Assembly: GCA_943358175.1 (NCBI GenBank)
Contig: CALRGV010000006.1
Span: 2,607 to 66,606 of the forward strand
Direction: 5' to 3'
DNA length: 64,000 bases
DNA from: Candidatus Peribacteria bacterium
GTDB taxonomy: Bacteria; Patescibacteriota; Gracilibacteria; UBA1369; LOWO2-01-FULL-3
This document shows, in pieces, positions 3,301-44,132 of the stretch; the first letter of the stretch is position 1; each line of letters begins with the position of its first letter. Below the pieces are notes generated by a model that made no database searches, was not told the origin of the DNA, and saw only the letters and a program-made list of their open reading frames with translations. A program made the translations under genes and the position numbers.

Positions 3301-5553
3301 CTACTCACTCAAAATCCTCCTCGGCTTCGCCCCATCTGCCGGACCTACCACGCCATTTTTCTCAAGCAAATCTATCAGACGAGCCGCCCTCGCATAACCC
3401 AATTTCAAATGTCTCTGTAACAACGAGGCCGAAGCCTTACGCGTCTGTATTACAAGCTGGAAAGCCTGTTCGTACATATCATCCCCATCACCATCATCAC
3501 CGGAAGGCGCAATGCGTGAATTTGGTACCCCCACAAGACTTTGCTTCGCAGTCTCCATACTCGTGATTGCCTCATCATATTTCGGCTCCGTAGTAAGCTT
3601 TACCCGATTCGTCACACGCTCAATTTCATCAGTAGAAACGTAAATACCTTGCACTCTTAAAGGTTTATTCATCCCTGGCGGCAAATAAAGCATATCACCC
3701 TTGCCAAGCAAATCCTCCGCTCCAACACCATCCAAAATCGTCCTGGAATCTATCTGACTGCTCACCGCAAAAGAAATTCTCGACGGAATATTGGCCTTAA
3801 TCAAACCGGTAATCACATCAACCGAAGGTCTCTGCGTCGCAATAATCAAATGAATTCCCACTGCGCGCGCCATCTGCGCCACGCGACAAATAGATGCTTC
3901 CACTTCCTTACCGGCCGCCATCATCAAATCCGCCAACTCATCAATCACCACAATAATTCTCGGCAATTTATTTATACCGCTAAGATCATTATATTCATTA
4001 ATATTTCTAACCCGATTATGAGAAAGTTCGCTATATCTGCGACCCATTTCCGCTACCACCCAGCGTAAACTGATCGCCGCTTTTTCCGGATCCTGAATCA
4101 CCGGCGTCAATAAATGCGGAATACTATTATAAGAACTCAATTCCACACGTTTCGGATCCACCATAATCAAACGCAAATCCCTTGGTGAATTCTGATACAA
4201 AAGCGCCGTCAAAAACACATTCATCGCCACCGACTTTCCACTACCGGTCGCACCGGCAATAAGCAAATGTGGCATGAGTTCCAAGTTGCCAATAATTGGC
4301 TTACCCGCAACATCTCTGCCCAACGGCAAACTCAATTTAGACTTGGCTTCTGCAAACTCGGCGGATTCCAAAATTTCCCGCAAATATACTGTCGCCCTAT
4401 TCTCACTTGGGACTTCAATTCCCACCAAAGATTTACCGGGAATTGGCGCCTCTATACGTATTCTTTCCGCCGCCAAAGCCAAAGCCAAATCATTTTTCAA
4501 AGCTGTAATTTTCGACAACTTCACTCCCTCATGTGGTTTCAAAGTATATTGAATTACCGTCGGACCCACATTTACTTCGTGCATCGTCACCTCAATTCCA
4601 AACTGAGACAATTTTTTCTTGATTTTCTCGGCATTCGCCATCAAAACATCATCATCCACCGTCACATTACTATCACCGGTTTTGAGCAAATCCAAAGAAG
4701 GAAATTCCCACTCATATACCTCCTCTTCAGCTTGCTTTTCCTTTTCTGAAAGCTCAGCTTCCACTTCCTTTGCCCTATCTTCATTAATAATAATTTTCGG
4801 TTTTTCATCGTCATCTTTCATATCATTTTCATCTCCCATAATCACTCCGCCATTTTTCAATTTATTACCACTGCTAATATGAGATTTTCTAATCATAATT
4901 TCCGGCCTCTCTTCTTCATCATCTTCTTCAACAGCAGACTTTTTACCACTAAAAGCAAAACCGAATAATCCTCTGGTCGGAGGCTCGATTTTCCTCTTCG
5001 ATTCCTTTACCATTTCAATCTTAATTTGTGGAATGATAAAAGCAAAAAGCTCTCTCAAAGAAAGTTCAAAAACCAGCAATAATGAAATCAAAAAACTTGC
5101 CACGAAAACAATCGTCGCCGTCACCCGTCCCACGCCCAATACATCCAAAACCAAAAAGTTCGTCACAAACCCTACATATCCTCCATACTTACCAAGCGCC
5201 GCATAATCATGAATCCTATCCGCCGGAACCGAAAGATGAATTATACTCAAAGCTGAAAAAAGCATTAGAATCAAACCGGCCAAGCGCGCCGTCCCAAAAA
5301 TAACCTTCTTTGAAAAAAACAAAATTCCCGCAATCATAAAAAACACCAAGGGCACCAAAAAAACACCCCAACCAAAAACCGGAGCCAGCAAATCAAAAAC
5401 CCATCCCGTACCCGGTAAAGTAAAATCGCTCTTCAAACTCAGGACTGAAATAATGCCCAAAGCCAAATAAATTATAGCCCAAATTTCTTTTGCGACCGAC
5501 GGCTTCACCTTGATGGTCATGGCTGCCCGACGCCTTCTATGCCTCCTACCCAT
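3301..5553 (-). CDS. ftsK: DNA translocase FtsK/SpoIIIE
   Basis: N-terminal TM helices, acidic linker, motor domain with Walker A GATGSGKS and DELADLMM, C-terminal gamma wHTH (ASASLLQRHLKLGYARAARLID). An alternative ATG at 5520 is possible. Confidence 0.9.
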   Translation of the reverse strand: MGRRHRRRRAAMTIKVKPSVAKEIWAIIYLALGIISVLSLKSDFTLPGTGWVFDLLAPVFGWGVFLVPLVFFMIAGILFFSKKVIFGTARLAGLILMLFSALSIIHLSVPADRIHDYAALGKYGGYVGFVTNFLVLDVLGVGRVTATIVFVASFLISLLLVFELSLRELFAFIIPQIKIEMVKESKRKIEPPTRGLFGFAFSGKKSAVEEDDEEERPEIMIRKSHISSGNKLKNGGVIMGDENDMKDDDEKPKIIINEDRAKEVEAELSEKEKQAEEEVYEWEFPSLDLLKTGDSNVTVDDDVLMANAEKIKKKLSQFGIEVTMHEVNVGPTVIQYTLKPHEGVKLSKITALKNDLALALAAERIRIEAPIPGKSLVGIEVPSENRATVYLREILESAEFAEAKSKLSLPLGRDVAGKPIIGNLELMPHLLIAGATGSGKSVAMNVFLTALLYQNSPRDLRLIMVDPKRVELSSYNSIPHLLTPVIQDPEKAAISLRWVVAEMGRRYSELSHNRVRNINEYNDLSGINKLPRIIVVIDELADLMMAAGKEVEASICRVAQMARAVGIHLIIATQRPSVDVITGLIKANIPSRISFAVSSQIDSRTILDGVGAEDLLGKGDMLYLPPGMNKPLRVQGIYVSTDEIERVTNRVKLTTEPKYDEAITSMETAKQSLVGVPNSRIAPSGDDGDGDDMYEQAFQLVIQTRKASASLLQRHLKLGYARAARLIDLLEKNGVVGPADGAKPRRILSE

Positions 5554-35222: not shown

Positions 35223-37778
35223 ATGGCTGAAAATGCATTACAAGAAGACTTAGACCTAAGTCCTCAAGAAAAACAGCAAGATAAAAATAATCAGAATGGA
35301 CCTGATGGCCTTAGCGATAAAAAACTCTCGGATAATGAGATTAAAGATTTGAAAGATGGGAAAACCAGCATCCCTAAACTGGTTGCCGAACGTATGCGCC
35401 TGAAAACAGCTGCCGAAGCCGAGATGAAGGAATTAGCCAAAGGAACAAACACCAAAGCTCCGGTTCTAGATCTAAGAGAATACCGCGATCTCCAAGCAGA
35501 GCTAAACACCACCGACAGCCCAGAGGAAACTCAAAAAATCCTGGATAAAATTCGTGATCTTCCAAAAAGAAAAGAAGCCCAAGCTGAAGAAGATAAAAAC
35601 GACGCCCAGGAACTCCCCCCGAACGACCCAAAACTGAAAGAACTTCAAACTAAATTCAACAAGATTTGTGATGACAATCAGGAACTCATCGGTGAAGGAC
35701 AAATCGACGGCAACAAAGCTTGGTTTGCGGAAGAAATGAGGAAAACTCCCACTCCCGCCCACCTCAAAGATCTGATCAAAAGAATGGAAGGTAAAGATAT
35801 TGAAGATAAAAACGGTCTCGCTCCTCGTCGTAAAGAATATGCAAAACTCACCGATTTGTTCAAAAAATACGGCCTGGACAGCCCCCAAGATTCCGCCTAC
35901 ATCAAAAAAGAAGGTCTCAGCGAACGTCAAAATTTCCGCAAACAAATTGAAGCCCTCGAAGATCATTTCTCAAAAATGAAAGATACCGGCTTCTATTCTC
36001 CGGAAAAAATAAAAGAGATGATGAAGGAAAACCTCAAAGCTGAAAATCCTGAAAAAATCACCGATAATATAAAAGCGGCCGGAGAAATCGCCCGCAAAGA
36101 AGCTGAAGGATTCACCCATTTGAACGAACAAGTTACCGTAGGAGGAGTCACTATTCACAAAATGAGTGAAGCCTCAAAAAAACAATATCTCGATTACTAC
36201 CGAGAATTAAACCTCAAAGATCGTAAAGAAAAAGGAGTGGACCAATGGCAAGCCATGGTCGACAACGAAGGAGCCCTAGCCAAACATTCAGATAAATTTT
36301 CCAATGTATATGCCGATCACGGTGTCCAAGCTCTCGATCAAATTTACAAAGATAATCCTGACGCCCTCCGTCTAGCCGTTCAGGGCTTCGAGACATTGGA
36401 TTTCATGCAAAAAGTAGATGCTTTAAAAAAGCACGCTGTCCTGGTAAAGGTCGCTAAAAACAAGGAAGAATTAGAACAAAATCTCACTTTCCAAGCAATT
36501 GGTGCTCATCTCGATAAAGCCACCGGCGATAAAAATATTTCCGGAAAAACTCGCGATAGATATCTCCAATTTTTCAAAGATCCAAACAACTTCAGAAATC
36601 CGGACACCAAAACGCCAGGAGATATGAAGGAGTTCAAAAAAGCTTACAGTGTTTTGATCAGCCCTACCCCGGACGAGAAACATAAAAATCTTGCAGCCTA
36701 TGAAGAACGTCGCAAAGAATTCGTCAAAGAATTAAAAAAATTGCAGGAAATTAATCCGGCAATTTCAGCTGAAGATATCAAAAAATGGCAGGACAAATAC
36801 GACGCTGAAGGCTGGACAAAACGTGAACAAATCCACAATCAAGAGTTGAAACCGAAAATGTCCAAAGAAAATGAAGATCGTAAAAAACGTATTGGTATCG
36901 AAGAAAAAGCCGGCATGAAAAAAGAGGACAAAGAAAAGAGCAAAGAAAGCGTAGCCGGACTCGCCGAAACAATCACAGCCGTCACCGAACTTATGGCCAA
37001 CGATCAAGGCGCCGAAGCCATGAAAAAACTGCTTGAATTCAATGAGACCCAACCGGACAATCCAAAAATTATTTTCTGGATGCAAACCGTTGCCAACTAC
37101 ATGAAAGAATTTGGCAGTGGCAAAAAACGTGAAGCAACAATTGATAAAGAACTCGAACAAGAAATGGAAAAAGTAGCCACCACCGATAAAGGCACTCAGG
37201 ACGAACTCCTGGAACAACAACTCAAAACCCTCAACATGGAAGGTGTAAAACAAAGTGAACAACGCCACAATCAGACTATTTCCGGCCAAGAAAGAGCCCG
37301 TAAAGAATCTATGGGCCGTGTACAAGAAGGCTCAGTGGAAGCCGAACTTACAACTGATGCCTACAAACAATTAGGCAAAGACTTCCAAATTAACAAAGAA
37401 GGAAAAGCTCAGAAAATCGAAGAAATTCAATTCAAAGATGGCAACATCAAAATGCAGGAACAAGATCGTTTCCGTATGAAACGCGAAACCTTCAAAGAAC
37501 AAACAAAACTTGATAAAAAAGAAGGTATGTTTACCGCCATGAAAGACAAACAGGGCAACGTCATTGATCACAAAGTTGCTGCAGCTCTACAACAAGCGGA
37601 ATTGGAAAAACTTGAAAAAGAAATGGCCGAAAGAGCTCAGAAAAAAGTGGAAAGCCGTGTTACTTCAAATGACACTCAAGGCGCCAAGATTTTTGATCTA
37701 AACACTAGAATAGCAGCTCGACGTAAAGCAAAAGAGCTTATCGACGAACAACGTCATGAAAAACTGAAAGCTGCATAA
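35223..37778 (+). CDS. Large (851 aa) highly charged Lys/Glu-rich orphan protein
   Basis: Uninterrupted ATG ORF. No signal peptide, TM helix or recognisable motif. The antisense ORFs on the track are shadows. Confidence 0.6.
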   Translation: MAENALQEDLDLSPQEKQQDKNNQNGPDGLSDKKLSDNEIKDLKDGKTSIPKLVAERMRLKTAAEAEMKELAKGTNTKAPVLDLREYRDLQAELNTTDSPEETQKILDKIRDLPKRKEAQAEEDKNDAQELPPNDPKLKELQTKFNKICDDNQELIGEGQIDGNKAWFAEEMRKTPTPAHLKDLIKRMEGKDIEDKNGLAPRRKEYAKLTDLFKKYGLDSPQDSAYIKKEGLSERQNFRKQIEALEDHFSKMKDTGFYSPEKIKEMMKENLKAENPEKITDNIKAAGEIARKEAEGFTHLNEQVTVGGVTIHKMSEASKKQYLDYYRELNLKDRKEKGVDQWQAMVDNEGALAKHSDKFSNVYADHGVQALDQIYKDNPDALRLAVQGFETLDFMQKVDALKKHAVLVKVAKNKEELEQNLTFQAIGAHLDKATGDKNISGKTRDRYLQFFKDPNNFRNPDTKTPGDMKEFKKAYSVLISPTPDEKHKNLAAYEERRKEFVKELKKLQEINPAISAEDIKKWQDKYDAEGWTKREQIHNQELKPKMSKENEDRKKRIGIEEKAGMKKEDKEKSKESVAGLAETITAVTELMANDQGAEAMKKLLEFNETQPDNPKIIFWMQTVANYMKEFGSGKKREATIDKELEQEMEKVATTDKGTQDELLEQQLKTLNMEGVKQSEQRHNQTISGQERARKESMGRVQEGSVEAELTTDAYKQLGKDFQINKEGKAQKIEEIQFKDGNIKMQEQDRFRMKRETFKEQTKLDKKEGMFTAMKDKQGNVIDHKVAAALQQAELEKLEKEMAERAQKKVESRVTSNDTQGAKIFDLNTRIAARRKAKELIDEQRHEKLKAA

Positions 37779-38424: not shown

Positions 38425-38871
38425 ATGTCCCTGAAAGAAACCCTCCAAAAAGACCTCATAGAAGCAATGAAAGCCCGAAACGAAGCTGGTACCGGAGCTA
38501 TTCGCATGCTCAAAACAGCGATCATGAAATTTGAAACCGCCGGCGAAAAAAAAGTAGCCACCGACGAGGACATTCTTCAATTGATAAATAAAGAAATCAA
38601 ACAACGCAAAGATTCCATCGAACAATTTGAAAAAGGTAATCGTCCCGAACTCGCCGCAATAGAAAAAGGAGAACTCGCCTTCCTTCAAAAATACATGCCG
38701 GAACAAATGGGCGAAGATGAAATCAAAGCAATCATAAAGGAAGGCATAGCGACAACTGGCGCTTCTTCCAAGGCCGACATGGGCAAAGTAATGGGCGTAA
38801 TTATGCCTAAAGTAAAAGGCAAAGCCGACGGCGGATTGGTGAATAGATTAGTTCAAGAGATGTTAGCCTAG
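38425..38871 (+). CDS. yqeY: GatB/YqeY-domain protein
   Basis: MSLKETLQKDLIEAMKARNE...KQRKDSIEQFEKGNRPELAAIE...KADMGKVMGVIMPKVKGKADG is the typical full-length YqeY pattern. Confidence 0.85.
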   Translation: MSLKETLQKDLIEAMKARNEAGTGAIRMLKTAIMKFETAGEKKVATDEDILQLINKEIKQRKDSIEQFEKGNRPELAAIEKGELAFLQKYMPEQMGEDEIKAIIKEGIATTGASSKADMGKVMGVIMPKVKGKADGGLVNRLVQEMLA

Positions 38872-39810
38872 AGCGATCTGAGCTCCCCTGGCATCTCTGG
38901 ATATCTCCACTGAATTCACGATATTTTCAATGTCATGCGGGTCAAATCCGCAACATCCACCGATTACTTTAATGCTACTATTTCTAATAGCCATGCTGAC
39001 TAATTGGGCTGGTCTTGTATGATGATCAGGCACCGTCACCGCACCTTCAACTTCCTCCAAACTCCTTGGATCACCATCCGACGCATTTGGGTAAACCATC
39101 AATAGACGATCTCTTTTTCCATTAGCTGTACCAATAGCAGCCTCCGCTCCTTTCACCGGACAACAATTTACAGAATAACCCAAAGCATAATTATTCGTCG
39201 CGGCATCAATTTGCCTCAATACATCAACCAAAGGCTCACCACCAAATAATTTAGCATCCTTATCAATCACAAAACTTGGAATGACAGGCAAACCCAATTT
39301 TTTTGCAGCCAATACAATACCTAAAGCTTCACGACCGGTGCAAATTGTTTCAAAAACTACAGCATCCAATCCTACCTCTTTCCATAAATCCCTTACCACA
39401 CCCAATTGTTCTAAATGAAAATCTCTAGCATCATAAGAATCATTGGGAGCTGCGCTTGGATCATAGCAATCACCATATGGCCCAAAAGCAGCCACTAGGT
39501 TTTTAGCCGTGTGACCACTCAAAGCTTCCCTCACCACAGCTATTTGCGCCTCAACCACCTCCCTATATAATCCGGGATTATCCTCTCTCAAAAGCCTTCT
39601 GGCACCAAAAGTATTCGTAGCAATCACCCCTGCTCCAGCCTCTACATAGGCCCTTGCCACAGCCAAAGTCTGCGTTCTATAATGACCACCTTCAACTATT
39701 CTTGTTGAATCATGCAAATCCAATACCCCCAATTCTTTTTCTCTTGATCGAAGAACAGAACCATACGGCCCTGATAAAACTTTAGTTCCTCCTTCCAATA
39801 ATCTACTCAT
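38863..39810 (-). CDS. Homocysteine S-methyltransferase family protein
   Basis: S-methyl_trans pattern: TNTFGA, VNCCP, IGGCCGFDPHDI (zinc-binding Cys residues). Its 3-prime end overlaps yqeY by 9 nt. Confidence 0.8.
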   Translation of the reverse strand: MSRLLEGGTKVLSGPYGSVLRSREKELGVLDLHDSTRIVEGGHYRTQTLAVARAYVEAGAGVIATNTFGARRLLREDNPGLYREVVEAQIAVVREALSGHTAKNLVAAFGPYGDCYDPSAAPNDSYDARDFHLEQLGVVRDLWKEVGLDAVVFETICTGREALGIVLAAKKLGLPVIPSFVIDKDAKLFGGEPLVDVLRQIDAATNNYALGYSVNCCPVKGAEAAIGTANGKRDRLLMVYPNASDGDPRSLEEVEGAVTVPDHHTRPAQLVSMAIRNSSIKVIGGCCGFDPHDIENIVNSVEISRDARGAQIALG

Positions 39811-39829
39811 ATTTTTTTAATTAGATAAT

Positions 39830-39858
39830 AAAAAAAACTCCCAGCCCTGACGGGGAGT
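39830..39858 (-). terminator. Hairpin plus U8 immediately upstream of the homocysteine methyltransferase start (attenuator terminator)
   Basis: Minus strand: ACUCCC-CGUCAGGGCU-GGGAGU followed by UUUUUUUU, then 19 nt to the ATG at 39810. Confidence 0.5.
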
Positions 39859-39884
39859 AAGTGTTTCAGTTTAGAATTTTTCAT

Positions 39885-39941
39885 CTACATAGACCACATC
39901 AATCCCCGCATGGAAAGCATCATTTGCATCTGCATCATCAT
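39885..39941 (-). CDS. Met-rich leader peptide MMMQMQMMLSMRGLMWSM (18 codons, 9 Met)
   Basis: Minus strand: ATG ATG ATG CAG ATG CAA ATG ATG CTT TCC ATG CGG GGA TTG ATG TGG TCT ATG TAG. Lies between a promoter-like element and the terminator hairpin. Confidence 0.5.
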   Translation of the reverse strand: MMMQMQMMLSMRGLMWSM

Positions 39942-39975
39942 TGCTAATTGTGGGCGACTTGTATTCATCGACTAA

Positions 39976-40004
39976 ATCCTAATATTTTACACTCAATAAG
40001 TCAA
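39976..40004 (-). promoter_or_regulatory. Candidate promoter of the leader/methyltransferase unit
   Basis: Minus strand: TTGACT (40004-39999), N17, TAGGAT (39981-39976). Confidence 0.35.
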
Positions 40005-40014
40005 ATGCTCATTG

Positions 40015-41505
40015 CTACAAATTTTTTATAATCCATCTCGCAACAAAATAATAATAAATAACCGCCAACCACCAATTAAACCAATCAATACCGATTGAAG
40101 CTAAAGGCAACATTGCAAAAAAACGCACCAAAAAAATCATTAAACCCATAATTAGATAGGCCACAAACCCAGAAATCAAACTCAAAAAATTGGAAAAATA
40201 TCCAAAAATTATTGCAAAAAATCCAAAAAGCATTGCCGCAGGAAGAAAAGGCAAAACAAAAATATTTGCCAAGGGCGCAACTAAACTCAAGCGTTCAAAA
40301 TTCAGTAAAATAATCGGCAAAGCCAGTACCTGAGCCGAAATTGTCATCGTCATGGATTCTCTAATACCAAAAAATTGCGGCAACTTAACAAAATATTTTT
40401 CAATCAAAGGAGAAACATAAACAAGTCCACAAGTTGCCAAGAACGAAAGCTGAAAACCCACATCATTCAACAAAATTAAAGGGTTGAAAAGATTCATAAA
40501 AAAGGCGGCGGCAAAAAGACTAATACTCACGAAATACGTCCTCCCAAACCAAAGCGCCAAAAGCCCCACCACTCCCATAATTGCCGCCCTCACCACCGAA
40601 GCTCCAGCCCCAACCAAAATCACAAAAATCACAATCATAGCCACCGAAGCTATGACTTTTTTTCTTCTTCCCAGAAACCCAAACATCCCACTGACCACCA
40701 CAATTAACATTGTAATATTATATCCGGAAACCGCCACAATATGACTCAATCCGGTAGTATTAAATTTAGCGGTGAGCTCGTCGCTAATCCCCCTCCGACT
40801 ACCCAAAATAAGTCCGGCCATAAAACCAGTGTAAGGTTCTGCGAAAATCTTTGAAATTCTCAACTCGAAATCTCCTTTGAAGCGAAATACCAAGTTCAGT
40901 AAACTGGATTTTGTATAATTCAACTTTTCTATCTTCGCCCTATAAATCACTGCGTAAATTCTATATCTTCTTAAATATTCTCCATAGTCAAAATCCTCTA
41001 TTACATCGGGTTTAATCAACTCTCCTTCAATCAAAAGACAATCTCCGTATTCATAAACTGGATAGCGATTTCCCATTACCAAAACCCTTCCGCTTACTGC
41101 AAAATTTCGCATCTCAAAAGCCTCAACCGTATATTTAACCTTGTCATTTCTGACATCCACCTCCTCGGAAATACAACCTTTCAAGTTGCCCTTCCCCAAA
41201 TATTTACTAACATCATTCTCCGCAATTAAATTCTCAAAACAAAGTCTCCCCACCCCAAACAAAAATCCCAAAGAAATCAATAAAAAGATTCTCCAATTAA
41301 GTTTCAAAAACTGTTTAGCTAGAAACACCATTAGCCCCAAAAGAAAAATTAGCTTTGCCAAATCACCGGAAGAATATAAATCCCCAAAAAAAATACCCGC
41401 CAAAAAAGCCACAAAAAATAAAATCAAAAACAAAGATTTTGGCAGCGCATAGTAGTTAATCTGCTCTTTCACCCGTCCCCTTATATAAGCAATAATTTCT
41501 TTCAT
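40015..41505 (-). CDS. comEC: ComEC/Rec2 DNA-uptake channel protein (no metallo-beta-lactamase domain)
   Basis: Polytopic protein with an N-terminal OB-like soluble insert and a competence-domain pattern (TGLSHIVAVSGYNITM). ATG 41505 is preferred over the TTG at 41511. Confidence 0.82.
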   Translation of the reverse strand: MKEIIAYIRGRVKEQINYYALPKSLFLILFFVAFLAGIFFGDLYSSGDLAKLIFLLGLMVFLAKQFLKLNWRIFLLISLGFLFGVGRLCFENLIAENDVSKYLGKGNLKGCISEEVDVRNDKVKYTVEAFEMRNFAVSGRVLVMGNRYPVYEYGDCLLIEGELIKPDVIEDFDYGEYLRRYRIYAVIYRAKIEKLNYTKSSLLNLVFRFKGDFELRISKIFAEPYTGFMAGLILGSRRGISDELTAKFNTTGLSHIVAVSGYNITMLIVVVSGMFGFLGRRKKVIASVAMIVIFVILVGAGASVVRAAIMGVVGLLALWFGRTYFVSISLFAAAFFMNLFNPLILLNDVGFQLSFLATCGLVYVSPLIEKYFVKLPQFFGIRESMTMTISAQVLALPIILLNFERLSLVAPLANIFVLPFLPAAMLFGFFAIIFGYFSNFLSLISGFVAYLIMGLMIFLVRFFAMLPLASIGIDWFNWWLAVIYYYFVARWIIKNL

Positions 41506-41630
41506 ACTCAAACCATATCAACCAAAGTTAAAATAAAGTTAAAATTTTTATAAATTCGTAAAAAAATCCAGCAACATCACTAGCGATTTAGCGTATATGT
41601 CTATTGATAAAAGAGCTTAACGGTCCTAAT

Positions 41631-44132
41631 ATGAAAAAAATGAAAATACAAATCTTTAAAAAGTCATTCACGAAAGTTTTATTACTGGCAATTATCCTGA
41701 ATCTGACGAGCATTACAGCCTCCGCCAGCGGATTTTCCGACGTTTCCGACACAACTCCAAACAACGAAGCAATCCTTTACCTTCAAGATCACGAAATCGT
41801 AAAAGGCTATGACGATGGAACTTTCAAACCTGAAAAAAACGTAAATCGCGCTGAATTATTAAAGATAATTATAGAAGGCTCTAAAATACAATTGGACGTC
41901 ACGGATTTCACTCCATTCAGCGACATCGACGATGCGGAATGGTATGCGCCCTATGTCAAAAAAGCTTACTCCTCAGGTTGGATCAACGGCTACAACGACG
42001 GCACCTTCAAGCCAAACCAAACAATTACCAAGGTCGAAGCCTTAAAAATCATTGGCGAAGCCCAAAATTGGCAACTACCAACAACCGAATCGACAGACCC
42101 ATGGTATGAATCTTACCTGCGCTACGCTGAAACCAATAATTACCTGGAAGACCAGGACTTCTCCCCTACAAATTTAATGACTCGCGGCAGTATCAGCGAA
42201 ATCATTTACCGCACAATACCAAAGACCAAAACCAAGACCGGCTCCAAAACAAAAATCGACTCAAAAAATAAAACCTCAACAGACACAAATACCGACACCA
42301 AAACTCTCAAGGCAATTATCGAAGATAAGGCAATCGATTCCCCGGACATTCCCACTAATTCTACGGATTTTAGTTACATCCAAACCGACTTTTTCGAGAA
42401 TATTACGCTCAGCGAAAAACTACCAAACACCTTTTACAAAAACGAGGTTTACATTATCGAAGGTGATGTTATCGGAGAAAATTACAAAACAGCCACCGTA
42501 ATAGTGAATGACGAAGACAAGAGCACCCATAAATATTTTAAGGGAACGATAACAAACAAGCATTTCAAAATTCCGATCTTTTTTAGAAAGTCGGGAGACT
42601 ATTCCATTGGACTCATTCCTGGAGAAAGCGGGAAAAGTCATGCCTCCATTATTCACGTAAACACCAATCTGCCGGAAACTTCCGCCAATTCGACAGCTCC
42701 CAACAACCTGGAAAACGTCATTCTTTCTTACGCCAAAGATAAAACTTCCATCACCTTCAACAACAGTGAGAACACTCTAAAAAAATTCACCTTCATCCAG
42801 AAAGATAAAACTGTCACCTACCTTTCCCGCCAAAATATCAACAGCATTGAGCTCAATTACAGCGATTTTGAAAATTTCTCAGATGGGGAAGTATCGTACA
42901 ACACCTCGGCAGCAAGACTTGGATCTCAATCACCATTGCTAGTCACGTCACCATTTTCTCAAAGCACGAACAAATCATTCAACGCCGTAGAACACAGCTT
43001 TGACGAAATTAATTCCGACGAAGTGGAAGTCGCAATTCCGGACACTCTCAGCAGCACAGAAAATTTCAGTTTCAACGGCATCACTAAAACCGACATTAAA
43101 CTCCAAGCCCTGGTTATGACTCCCGACGGCAAAGTAGACCAGCTAGACCTGACTACGACCGGCGAAATCGACACTTACTTCAACAAAAAAATCATCAAAA
43201 AAGGTAGCCCTTTTACTTTCAATTACACCCCAAAAACAAAAGGACGCTATATCATAGAAATAAACAATAAAAACAGTGAACCTTCAATCAATCACCCTAT
43301 TTACGTCGGAGACATCATTCCTATAATTCCGGATTTTTTCGACCTTACTCAAAGAGAATCCTACAAAGACAATTTTGATCTCAGTAATGAAAGAACAAAA
43401 CTTCTAAATCTTATTAACCAAAGCCGCACAAGCCACGGACTGGAGGCTATCGTAATGGATGACAAACTAAACATTCTGGCTCAAGAGCATTCTGACGACA
43501 TGAAGACAAATAATTATTTCAGTCATTATAATCTGAGCAGCAAGACTCCGGAAGATCGTCGCATTGCCCTGGGAATCAACACTTCAGTTGGTGAAAATAT
43601 TGCCAAAGATGTTTCAGTCAAATTTGCTCATTTTGGACTGATGCGCAGCGCTTCACATTACGAAAATATTCTCACGGCCGATTGGAAAAAAGTTGGACTG
43701 GGTATCAGCCTGGACAAAGGAGGATTGATAATTACTGAAGAATTTTCTATTAATCCGCTAACAACGGAAGATTTTACAAAATTCAAAACAGATCTTTTAA
43801 AAAGTATCAACGACTTAAGGCAAAGCAAAAATTTAAATACCATGATTGAAACGGAATCCCTCAATAAAAGCTCCGCGCAAGTAAATAACGAAAACGTAAA
43901 TGCTAAAACTCTCACCGCCCAAACCCTTAGTAAAGCTCTTGATGATAACGGCTTCAACGGTAGCGCCCAACTCATTGGACGTGTCGGCAATCCCTGGGGC
44001 TATCTGATCAAATCCATTCTCGCTGATGAAGAGTCACTCCTTATCCAAACCTGGCAAAATATTGGCGCAAATATTCAGACTGACAAAAACGGAAAAATCT
44101 ATACAATTGTAATCGTAGGGAAAGACACCTAA
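41631..44132 (+). CDS. Secreted SLH-domain protein with C-terminal CAP/SCP (YkwD-like) domain
   Basis: Signal peptide after ATG 41631; SLH repeats (GYDDGTFKPEKNVNRAELLKI); C-terminal LINQSRTSHGL...YFSHYN...GENIA...HYENIL...VGLGI. Confidence 0.7.
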   Translation: MKKMKIQIFKKSFTKVLLLAIILNLTSITASASGFSDVSDTTPNNEAILYLQDHEIVKGYDDGTFKPEKNVNRAELLKIIIEGSKIQLDVTDFTPFSDIDDAEWYAPYVKKAYSSGWINGYNDGTFKPNQTITKVEALKIIGEAQNWQLPTTESTDPWYESYLRYAETNNYLEDQDFSPTNLMTRGSISEIIYRTIPKTKTKTGSKTKIDSKNKTSTDTNTDTKTLKAIIEDKAIDSPDIPTNSTDFSYIQTDFFENITLSEKLPNTFYKNEVYIIEGDVIGENYKTATVIVNDEDKSTHKYFKGTITNKHFKIPIFFRKSGDYSIGLIPGESGKSHASIIHVNTNLPETSANSTAPNNLENVILSYAKDKTSITFNNSENTLKKFTFIQKDKTVTYLSRQNINSIELNYSDFENFSDGEVSYNTSAARLGSQSPLLVTSPFSQSTNKSFNAVEHSFDEINSDEVEVAIPDTLSSTENFSFNGITKTDIKLQALVMTPDGKVDQLDLTTTGEIDTYFNKKIIKKGSPFTFNYTPKTKGRYIIEINNKNSEPSINHPIYVGDIIPIIPDFFDLTQRESYKDNFDLSNERTKLLNLINQSRTSHGLEAIVMDDKLNILAQEHSDDMKTNNYFSHYNLSSKTPEDRRIALGINTSVGENIAKDVSVKFAHFGLMRSASHYENILTADWKKVGLGISLDKGGLIITEEFSINPLTTEDFTKFKTDLLKSINDLRQSKNLNTMIETESLNKSSAQVNNENVNAKTLTAQTLSKALDDNGFNGSAQLIGRVGNPWGYLIKSILADEESLLIQTWQNIGANIQTDKNGKIYTIVIVGKDT

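Follow-up and report, generated by a model that had tools for sequence, protein, structure and literature searches.

The 204-nt gap that separates comEC from a gene of the homocysteine S-methyltransferase family in the genome of an uncultured Peregrinibacteria (CPR) bacterium analyzed here raises the question of whether a translated leader can read the methionine supply of a cell. Leader-peptide attenuators are established for Trp, His, Phe, Thr, Leu, and Ile/Val, with Cys being sensed in a translational variant, and for methionine genes SAM riboswitches or T-boxes are the usual means of control. A preliminary description of the 64,000-nt stretch of DNA (the window) had proposed a Met-codon-sensing attenuator in this gap, and the promoter, the ATG-rich ORF, the hairpin followed by T8, the 19-nt spacing to the methyltransferase gene, and the length of the gap itself were all found where it had placed them. 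Our comparison with homologous loci points in the same direction: the element is probably a ribosome-mediated transcription attenuator that controls the methyltransferase gene according to how much charged elongator Met-tRNA is available. All features described below lie on the minus strand of the window unless noted.

The methyltransferase gene, its promoter, and the leader ORF

The presumably regulated gene (38863-39810) encodes a protein of 315 aa that matches PF02574 (E = 1.7e-35). Its score lies below all NCBIfam equivalog cut-offs, and it is distant from the Hcy domain of MetH as well as from MmuM. The residues C217, C286, and C287, which we take to be the zinc ligands of the homocysteine S-methyltransferase family, are invariant in the clade alignment (A1), and the protein is predicted to be a methionine-forming enzyme. 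Its ATG (39810) is located 19 nt past the U-run of the hairpin and is without a Shine-Dalgarno sequence. The gene upstream of the gap, comEC, has a Competence/DUF4131 match and ends with a stop codon at 40017-40015. The hairpin was also considered as a terminator of comEC; this was rejected, because the promoter sits between comEC and the hairpin and because the leader accompanies the methyltransferase gene regardless of the gene upstream.

The sigma-70-like promoter (39976-40004), recognized by sequence and in a consensus scan, consists of TTGACT (40004-39999), a 17-nt spacer, and TAGGAT (39981-39976). A single match of this kind is not unusual, as the scan yielded 12 promoter-like sites in the region with 7.4 expected. 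However, the arrangement TTGAC(T)-N16/17-TAnnAT-N6/7-ATG is kept in 11 loci (alignment A11), in all of which 6-7 nt separate the -10 hexamer from the ATG of the leader, with no Shine-Dalgarno sequence. In the window, the hexamer ends 7 nt ahead of the leader ATG (39968), which predicts a transcript with little or no sequence ahead of the ATG; given this promoter geometry, from which the start site is deduced, the leader mRNA is probably leaderless.

The leader ORF itself (39885-39968) comprises 27 codons, 10 of which are Met codons, followed by TAG at 39887-39885, and encodes MNTSRPQLAMMMQMQMMLSMRGLMWSM; it is supported by its sequence and by homologous ORFs elsewhere. While the mini-ORF initially reported is indeed present, Met-rich, and terminated by this TAG, it extends in frame to the ATG at 39968, 27 nt upstream of the one assigned before, and the 18-codon version begins at codon 10. 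Codons 10-17 (39918-39941; MMMQMQMM), including 6 Met codons, form a cluster that is found at a fixed distance from the stop codon in all loci, and we propose that ribosomes would stall at this site (39941-39918) when Met-tRNA is low. The corresponding Met-codon pattern, ATGATGNNNATGNNNATGATG, has a single exact occurrence in the 64 kb; when up to 2 mismatches are tolerated, 0.28 matches are expected. A second near-match at 3477-3497 is out of frame within an ORF of 750 aa (3301-5553, minus strand), which by eye resembles an FtsK-type DNA translocase.

Conservation of the leader and its alternative hairpins

On their own, the fold and the promoter match of the window are unremarkable, and the significance of the element therefore comes from its conservation in 18 other loci. 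These were gathered by scanning genome and metagenome collections with the methyltransferase; the MAGs concerned come from groundwater and lake samples. The leader is present in 19 loci, including the window, and is always located directly upstream of the orthologous methyltransferase gene, which is of a Peregrinibacteria type, with upstream neighbors that differ among the loci (comEC, tRNA-Tyr, an opposite-strand tRNA-Gly, and other genes). A model built from a single locus (R1, from L022 alone) matched 17 other loci with E-values from 7.6e-5 to 2.1e-15, and the refined model (R2) assigned 75.3 bits to the leader of the window. In the 64-kb window and all fetched flanks, each locus has one copy of the leader; ORFs on the plus strand (113 and 104 aa, respectively) cover the next-best matches in the window, which are located at 2218-2321 (17.3 bits) and 2432-2497 (14.4 bits).

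The leader ORFs comprise 21-38 codons, with start and stop codons kept in all 19 loci. Each locus contains 4-7 Met codons within a cluster of 6-10 codons, and across all loci the Met positions relative to the stop codon are -17, -16, -15, -14/-13, -12, and -11. The codons between them vary (Q, A, N, S, P, and I), including synonymous CAG/CAA changes, and gaps or indels inside the cluster are multiples of three and thus in frame. Further Met codons at positions -8, -4, and -1 are less conserved and lie within the helices P1 and P2 described below. As to the conservation in relatives on which the preliminary description had made its reading depend, the 18 further loci carry the Met cluster together with a terminator and an overlapping antiterminator. 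A protein-database search with the padded leader-peptide alignment returned 205 candidates, none of which scored; leader-length peptides are evidently not called as genes.

Downstream of the ORF, an intrinsic terminator (39830-39858) is supported by sequence and folding. The hairpin ACUCCC.GU....GC.GGGAGU, with arms ACTCCC (39858-39853) and GGGAGT (39842-39837) and a stability of -10.2 kcal/mol, is followed by U8 (39837-39830), and in all orthologous loci a hairpin (-6.8 to -24.6 kcal/mol) with a U-run of at least 5 U occupies the equivalent position. Folding assigns the 5' strand of an antiterminator to codons 20-26 of the ORF (region 2, 39892-39910), with GCGGGGA (39909-39903) contributing to helix P1 and 39901-39892 to helix P2. 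The 3' strand (region 3, 39850-39867), supported by folding and by pair counts on alignment A7, provides the partners at 39867-39858 (P2) and UCCCCGU at 39856-39850 (P1). Region 3 overlaps the 5' arm of the terminator at 39858-39850, and the two predicted hairpins are mutually exclusive; the stop codon of the leader is in the apical loop of the antiterminator. An alternative pairing had been noted before as 8 bp with one bulged U. Such a pairing exists, but it consists of 7 bp without a bulge (GCGGGGA/UCCCCGU) and is part of a larger structure, which includes the second helix between 39901-39892 and 39867-39858.

When the 3' arm of the terminator was omitted from folding, the 3' third of the ORF paired with the 5' arm of the terminator in all loci that the covariance model had found. 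In alignment A7, which is fitted to the structure, 91.6% of the antiterminator cells are paired compared to 38-52% in slid controls, and 7 of the 16 pairs show changes on both sides, a number that was reached by none of 500 shuffles of this fitted alignment. Since the covariance model was seeded from one sequence and the loci were realigned with the model, these pair counts are biased toward the structure. Therefore, an alignment-free test of cognate partners was used as a check: cognate duplexes had a mean of -18.7 kcal/mol compared to -16.7 kcal/mol for permuted ones, with 30 of 20000 permutations being as low, and in each of the most divergent loci (L006, L011, and L021) the own partner ranked first. 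Furthermore, a +1/-1 frameshift pair in 2 loci (L003 and L017) turns M-R-G-L into N-A-G-V with GCGGGGG being kept, and the Arg codon CGG in region 2 is invariant. As judged from the compensated frameshift, the second half of the ORF is constrained as RNA.

It should be noted that the predicted fold of the window leader does not stand out from those of shuffled sequence (z = -0.85 to -0.98). Its full-length MFE structure forms the antiterminator and not the terminator, so that the ribosome-free default state in this genome may differ from that of many orthologues, whose full-length MFE contains a helix between regions 1 and 2 (1:2 helix) together with the terminator. RNAalifold on a plain MAFFT alignment (A3) recovered the antiterminator in fragments only, because variable loops shift its 3' strand.

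The N-terminal codons (39949-39966) may provide a classical region 1 that could pair with region 2 as an anti-antiterminator, and we regard this assignment as tentative. In a fold of the ORF alone, 39966-39949 is paired with 39910-39892, and several orthologues (e.g., L004, L016, L021, and L022) show an equivalent pairing in their full-length MFE. Although 83.5% of the cells of this helix are paired compared to 41-48% in slid controls, its covariation is no better than that of shuffles, its stability shows no excess over shuffles, and RNAalifold on a plain MAFFT alignment (A8) recovered none of it. Finally, a distant, GC-richer homologue (L024) combines a Met-rich ORF and a terminator with an alternative structure (z = -3.7) that is of another build and likewise reaches into the 3' end of the ORF, indicating that the principle recurs outside the sequence family.

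Alternative readings and the proposed mechanism

With both alternative hairpins conserved, the same terminator and antiterminator could be operated by an RNA switch that binds a ligand (SAM or Met) or a regulatory protein, the reading frame being incidental. Such a device would be in line with the usual control of methionine genes, and among the alternatives it fares best, yet we consider it improbable. Rfam searches revealed no relevant match at E <= 10 for window positions 38500-41000 or at E <= 1 for 7 other loci, and at the gathering threshold the window contained a tRNA-Glu only, with no riboswitch or T-box. Moreover, no conserved multi-helix aptamer is seen; the conserved upstream part is instead an uninterrupted ORF with in-frame indels and varying non-Met codons, in which ATG occupies 4-7 cluster positions in all 19 loci, and with the promoter in this position there would be no 5' UTR to accommodate an aptamer.

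Ranking behind this, and in our view very unlikely, is that the ORF encodes a functional Met/Cys-rich micropeptide, either metal-binding or acting in trans, with the hairpin serving as its terminator and the methyltransferase being expressed independently. The leaders share a fairly well conserved motif, M-C-[CFS]-M, at the C terminus, and leader peptides with trans functions are known, e.g., peTrpL (PMC7298713). However, only 19 A/T-rich nt lie between the U-run and the ATG of the enzyme, a stretch too short to hold a promoter of its own. In addition, the C-terminal half of the ORF is constrained as RNA and not as peptide, as seen from the frameshift pair in L003 and L017, the invariant CGG codon, and compensatory changes with the terminator arm, and the final Met is changed to A or V in several loci. 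The peptide may still have a side function besides attenuation.

Even less probable is that the nascent peptide responds in the exit tunnel to free Met or SAM by arresting the ribosome, in the way known for TnaC and Trp, so that charging of Met-tRNA would not be the signal. Metabolite-sensing arrest peptides such as TnaC exist (PMC8429421), and the peptide is conserved over its whole length (consensus MNTxQPQxxMMMxMMMRxMRRLMCFM). On the other hand, the residues that follow the cluster are altered by the frameshift in L003 and L017 and are also different in L011 and L024, with the RNA pairing being kept, runs of cognate codons are a hallmark of sensing by tRNA charging, and a Met-dependent arrest at the end of the ORF would be redundant with plain translation to the stop codon. 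Least probable of all is a non-specific translation-rate sensor of the ermC/bmrB type, in which any slowdown would lead to readthrough: the overlap of ORF and antiterminator is shared with antibiotic-responsive ribosome-mediated attenuators (PMC4191407), but the extreme and conserved enrichment of one rare codon and a methionine-forming enzyme as the only target argue for Met as the specific signal.

The Met-codon-sensing attenuator of the preliminary description is thus the reading that we prefer, and it is supported by the 18 further loci, the compensatory changes in the antiterminator, and the frameshift in L003 and L017. We propose that transcription would start at or next to the ATG at 39968, as suggested by the promoter geometry, and that the 27-codon leader would be translated by a ribosome assumed to be coupled closely behind RNA polymerase. 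With ample Met-tRNA, the ribosome would pass the Met cluster into region 2 (39910-39892) and continue to the stop codon; as it would then occupy region 2 when regions 3 and 4 emerge, the terminator (39858-39830) would form and transcription would end 19 nt before the enzyme gene. With scarce Met-tRNA, the ribosome would stall within the cluster, 8-32 nt upstream of region 2. By ribosome-footprint arguments made by hand, region 2 would then be free to pair with region 3 (P1 and P2, approximately 15 bp), sequestering the 5' arm of the terminator, and the inferred direction of regulation would be readthrough into the gene under Met limitation. Without a ribosome, pairing of region 1 with region 2 might let the terminator form, as in trp.

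Two points complicate this simple scheme. Stalling at the Met codons of region 2 (-8, -4, and -1) would favor termination, and a shortage of Met also limits fMet-tRNA and, therefore, initiation on the sensor ORF, which counts against the simple model. With a sensor ORF that is largely made up of AUG codons and predicted to be leaderless, two Met inputs might be integrated by the device, namely 70S initiation (fMet-tRNAfMet, reflecting Met and formyl-folate) and elongation (elongator Met-tRNA). We put this forward as a rather unlikely extension, in which lineage-specific default states (the antiterminator according to the MFE of the window, the 1:2 helix with the terminator in most relatives) would set how a total failure of initiation is read. 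If correct, the element would be a sensor of Met and one-carbon status peculiar to reduced CPR genomes, going beyond a recoded trp-type attenuator.

Relation to known regulatory systems

In our best reading, the element would be a classical attenuator with a new specificity, Met-tRNA, which is probably leaderless and for which we found no earlier description in CPR. Our literature search on cis-regulatory RNA in CPR/Patescibacteria retrieved no reports, and the search on Met attenuators retrieved only predictions from Campylobacter. If true, a Met-specific attenuator would fill the Met gap among amino-acid leader-peptide attenuators, and CPR/Patescibacteria would use coupled transcription-translation for metabolic control, with supposedly auxotrophic cells tuning a methionine-regenerating step to the charging of Met-tRNA. 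The element is compact (approximately 140 nt) and probably leaderless, and is thus suited to heterologous or cell-free testing, and the covariance model enables a search of Peregrinibacteria genomes for a Met regulon.

SAM riboswitches and Met T-boxes likewise exert cis-acting RNA control of methionine genes, often through a choice between terminator and antiterminator. However, they sense SAM or uncharged tRNA by a structured aptamer and without translation, and none was detected here. The proteobacterial attenuators trpL, hisL, pheL, thrL, leuL, and ilvL/ivbL are closer in design: a short ORF rich in codons for the end-product amino acid overlaps the switch, a terminator with an exclusive antiterminator precedes the biosynthetic gene, and a 1:2 helix may form. 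The two are related neither in sequence nor through an Rfam family, and the element described here differs in that Met would be sensed, the mRNA is predicted to be leaderless, and the host belongs to the CPR. Furthermore, its Met codons are placed not inside region 1 but in the loop that separates regions 1 and 2, and its ORF continues across region 2 to a stop codon in the loop of the antiterminator.

The idea of a Met leader peptide has precedent in the predicted leaders of Campylobacter jejuni, MetL, a peptide of 20 aa with 3 Met codons that precedes metBA, and CJsORF19 (MMYQMR), which precedes a gene for a Met transporter; both are likewise proposed to place Met codons ahead of methionine genes (PMC3847290, PMC11955535). 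According to the excerpts of these reports considered here, a short terminated RNA was seen for MetL and its translation was shown by Ribo-seq, with attenuation being a prediction. These leaders belong to another phylum, are unrelated in sequence, have far fewer Met codons, and, in the same excerpts, were found only in C. jejuni and close relatives; neither an antiterminator model nor covariation is mentioned in them, unlike in the present case.

A further parallel is found in mycobacteria, where leaderless poly-Cys short ORFs constitute a Cys "ribulon" (bioRxiv 10.1101/834739). Both systems share a sensory ORF that is leaderless (as predicted here), a run of cognate codons, and a stalled ribosome that remodels the RNA downstream (as proposed here). 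Set against the mycobacterial ORFs, the Peregrinibacteria element has a canonical intrinsic terminator.

Organisation of the leader in the window

Between a comEC-like gene (41511-40015; Competence/DUF4131 match) and the homocysteine S-methyltransferase gene (39810-38863; PF02574, E = 1.7e-35), both on the minus strand, the window carries a promoter, a Met-rich leader ORF, and a terminator on that same strand. The promoter proposed in the preliminary description (40004-39976) is present as TTGACT (40004-39999), a 17-nt spacer, and TAGGAT (39981-39976), and was also listed by a consensus scan, in which such a lone match in the window is unremarkable. The terminator hairpin ACUCCC...GGGAGU (39858-39837), which runs into U8 (39837-39830), a U-run that is separated by 19 nt from the methyltransferase ATG at 39810, was likewise found as described there. 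The mini-ORF, which had been given as 18 codons, is indeed rich in ATG and ends with TAG at 39887-39885, but its frame stays open further 5' as far as ATG 39968, which gives 27 codons with 10 Met (MNTSRPQLAMMMQMQMMLSMRGLMWSM). Pairing of this ORF with the terminator 5' arm, also noted previously, is present and larger than proposed: besides GCGGGGA (39909-39903) with UCCCCGU (39856-39850), termed P1, a second helix (P2) joins 39901-39892 with 39867-39858, and the minimum free energy (MFE) fold of the leader is this antiterminator with both helices. Since 39858-39850 belongs to both the antiterminator and the terminator 5' arm, the two structures are mutually exclusive.

Elsewhere in the window, the gene divergent from comEC (41604-44132, plus strand) encodes 842 aa with a CAP (cysteine-rich secretory protein) domain and two S-layer-homology domains, and its product may be a cell-surface protein of this CPR bacterium; an 851-aa ORF (35223-37778, plus strand) has no Pfam match at E <= 0.001.

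Judged from the window by itself, the leader is only partly distinguishable from chance. The Met-codon pattern ATGATGNNNATGNNNATGATG has a single exact match in the 64 kb, where 0.28 matches with at most 2 mismatches are expected; the other near match is out of frame within a 750-aa ORF resembling an FtsK-type translocase. Folding of the window's leader was no better than that of shuffled sequence (z = -0.85 to -0.98). Therefore, the case depends on the comparison with relatives.

Conservation of the leader and its Met codons

The closest relatives of the methyltransferase (47-63% identity) come from Candidatus Peregrinibacteria/Peribacteria MAGs and metagenome contigs, and beyond this nearest group identity falls to at most 36%. 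The enzyme reaches none of the NCBIfam equivalog cut-offs, and its relationship to MmuM and to the Hcy domain of MetH is distant; C217, C286, and C287 are invariant in the clade alignment, and we take these residues as the zinc ligands usual in homocysteine S-methyltransferases. Scans of genome and metagenome collections, together with exact-protein look-ups, yielded 20 further distinct loci with upstream sequence (at least 32% identity; designated by L numbers), and searching these for a Met-rich mini-ORF followed by a hairpin and U-run revealed a homologous leader directly 5' of the methyltransferase gene in 18 of them. The leader peptides include MNKFQPQLGGLMQMQMMRSMRRLMCSM (L001), MYQSTQMMMAMMMRTMRRLMCCM (L002), MNNTNRPQFGMMMQMMMRQMRGLKCFA (L008), MNFLQTQMMNMMMMPSRRISSCFA (L011), and MNTFVSTLLSALAPASSMMAMMMQMIMPLRRRLLWLMV (L006), as well as MNFHTSQSMMSMMMPMRRPPR at L024, where the enzyme is 32% identical, the contig is GC-richer, and the gene adjoins NusA and folate/pterin genes (PTPS, HPPK, GTP cyclohydrolase I). 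A covariance model built from a single locus recovered 17 other loci (E = 7.6e-5 to 2.1e-15), with one copy each, and the refined model assigned 75.3 bits to the window's leader; the next match in the window scored 17.3 bits and is overlapped by plus-strand ORFs (113 and 104 aa).

The upstream neighbour differs by locus (comEC, tRNA-Tyr, tRNA-Gly on the opposite strand, or other genes), and the leader thus belongs to the methyltransferase gene. The one clear exception without a leader is L010/L019 (L010:1-1165, L019:1097-1500), where a 130-aa helix-turn-helix gene (HTH_23/HTH_28, transposase-like) ends 11 nt 5' of the methyltransferase ATG; here, a rearrangement appears to have removed the attenuator, with the HTH gene in place of the upstream region. 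At L004 (181-1602), the Met leader and its own terminator are intact (181-317), leader and methyltransferase are separated by a 408-aa SIS-domain gene (341-1567), and the terminator 3' half, U-run, and ATTATT are repeated immediately 5' of the enzyme ATG (GTTGCGGAGTTTTTTATTATTT). The arrangement resembles an insertion within the loop of the terminator, one that would bring a foreign gene under the Met leader. In a clade of 5 loci (L002, L005, L009, L018, L023), the leader adjoins a tRNA-Tyr gene, beginning 14-15 nt past the tRNA 3' end in L009, L018, and L023. In L002 (2729-2849) and L005 (2723-2844), the 3'-terminal 19-20 nt of the tRNA recur 102 nt downstream, and it is this repeat that the leader follows, the duplication being an att-like footprint of a small insertion.

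Start and stop codons of the leader are kept in every locus. Counted from the stop, Met codons occupy the same positions across loci (-17, -16, -15, -14/-13, -12, -11), with less constant ones at -8, -4, and -1 in the antiterminator strand of the ORF (region 2; 39910-39892 in the window). The codons interspersed among them vary freely (including CAG, CAA, GCG, AAC, TCC, CCA, ATA, and ATC), and length differences within the Met cluster are multiples of three. The promoter, TTGAC(T)-N16/17-TAnnAT, is conserved in 11 loci and ends 6-7 nt 5' of the leader ATG, leaving no room for a Shine-Dalgarno sequence; this geometry predicts a leaderless mRNA whose 5' end is the initial ATG of the longer, 27-codon ORF, which is why this version is preferred. 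Loci of the tRNA-Tyr-linked group carry a TAAAAT hexamer after the tRNA 3' end, 8 nt 5' of the leader ATG. The methyltransferase gene also lacks a Shine-Dalgarno sequence, as do the equivalent positions in all loci, and the A/T-only stretch 5' of its ATG (39811-39829 in the window; TTATTATYTAATTTAAAAAATATG) is conserved. Since leader ORF and enzyme gene share this lack, SD-independent initiation in these Peregrinibacteria is suggested.

A probable terminator/antiterminator switch

A terminator was found in every locus (-6.8 to -24.6 kcal/mol), and with its 3' arm omitted, every model-detected locus folds the final third of the ORF onto the 5' arm. The consensus antiterminator, whose apical loop holds the stop codon, comprises two helices, P1 (UGCGGAG with CUCCGCA) and P2 (UGAUGUGUU with AACACAUUG). 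In the model-derived alignment (A7), whose fitting to the structure favours its pair counts, 91.6% of cells hold standard pairs compared to 38-52% with partners slid 1-3 columns, and 7 of 16 pairs changed on both sides, which none of 500 shuffles reached. Because of this fitting, an alignment-free duplex test was added: ORF ends with their own terminator arms averaged -18.7 kcal/mol compared to -16.7 kcal/mol for permuted partners, and only 30 of 20000 permutations were as low. For the most divergent loci (L006, L011, L021), the own partner outranked each of the 17 others; in L021, GUCGGAG with CUCCGAC stands in place of the P1 consensus, and L006 has GCGGCGGAGG with CCUUCGCCGC.

L003 (2843-2926) and L017 (1345-1428) speak against explaining the leader mainly by a functional micropeptide or by an arrest peptide of specific sequence: in both, +1 and -1 indels flanking the P1 strand change the peptide from M-R-G-L to N-A-G-V, while the GCGGGGG nucleotides of the antiterminator strand are unchanged. 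Thus, the second half of the ORF is constrained as RNA. At L024 (1318-1452), the inner segments of both terminator arms, the 3' arm included, are engaged by the ORF end in an alternative structure that is built differently (z = -3.7). With its own Met-rich leader, this locus indicates that the Met-leader principle recurs outside the sequence family and may be wider than the covariance model captures.

A possible further helix (1:2) would pair the N-terminal codons (region 1) with region 2. In the full-length MFE folds of L004, L016, L021, and L022, it is long, carries the Met cluster in its loop, and accompanies the terminator; L001, L003, L015, and L020 have a partial version, and the ORF-only fold of the window shows the same topology (39966-39949 with 39910-39892). 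Judged by MFE, the default state without a ribosome would be the antiterminator in the window and 1:2 plus terminator in most relatives. On an unfitted alignment, 83.5% of 1:2 positions are paired compared to 41-48% in slid controls. Shuffling, however, gives at least as much covariation, and shuffled sequence folds with the same stability. A role as anti-antiterminator or pause helix is plausible, not established.

Proposed mechanism and comparison with known systems

The Met-codon attenuator reading of the preliminary description is supported by the relatives, in which leader, Met cluster, and switch are kept. We consider it probable, on sequence comparison, that the leader is a classical ribosome-mediated attenuator responding to Met-tRNA supply. 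By hand estimates from textbook ribosome dimensions, a ribosome at the stop codon (39887-39885) would cover roughly 39902-39873, including the P2 strand and abutting P1, so that the terminator would form and transcription would end at the U-run. Upon Met-tRNA starvation, a ribosome whose A site is held at codons 10-17 (39941-39918) would have its leading edge at about 39928-39907; all or most of region 2 would then be available for pairing with region 3 (39867-39850), and polymerase would read into the enzyme gene.

Every sequence-level feature of ribosome-mediated attenuators was found, save that the 1:2 helix keeps its pairing without covariation support. The leader belongs to no described sequence family; even permissive thresholds gave no Rfam match for it or for seven others. 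While the mechanism itself is known, the novelty lies in the specificity for Met, which has strong comparative support, in the probably leaderless transcript, and in the CPR host. Full-text literature searches found no established Met leader-peptide attenuator and, for CPR/Patescibacteria, no report of attenuation by leader peptides; no case for methionine is given in surveys covering Actinobacteria or premature terminators (PMC1262725, PMC2965389). The nearest precedents are in Campylobacter jejuni: MetL, a 20-aa peptide with 3 Met codons encoded 5' of metBA, with a short terminated RNA and translation seen by Ribo-seq, and CJsORF19 (MMYQMR), 5' of a Met transporter gene; in the accessible portions of the sources, both are predictions for which functional tests are not reported (PMC3847290, PMC11955535). 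Closest in transcript organisation are the leaderless poly-Cys sensory ORFs of mycobacteria, which, unlike the terminator-based leader of the window, act on translation (bioRxiv 10.1101/834739).
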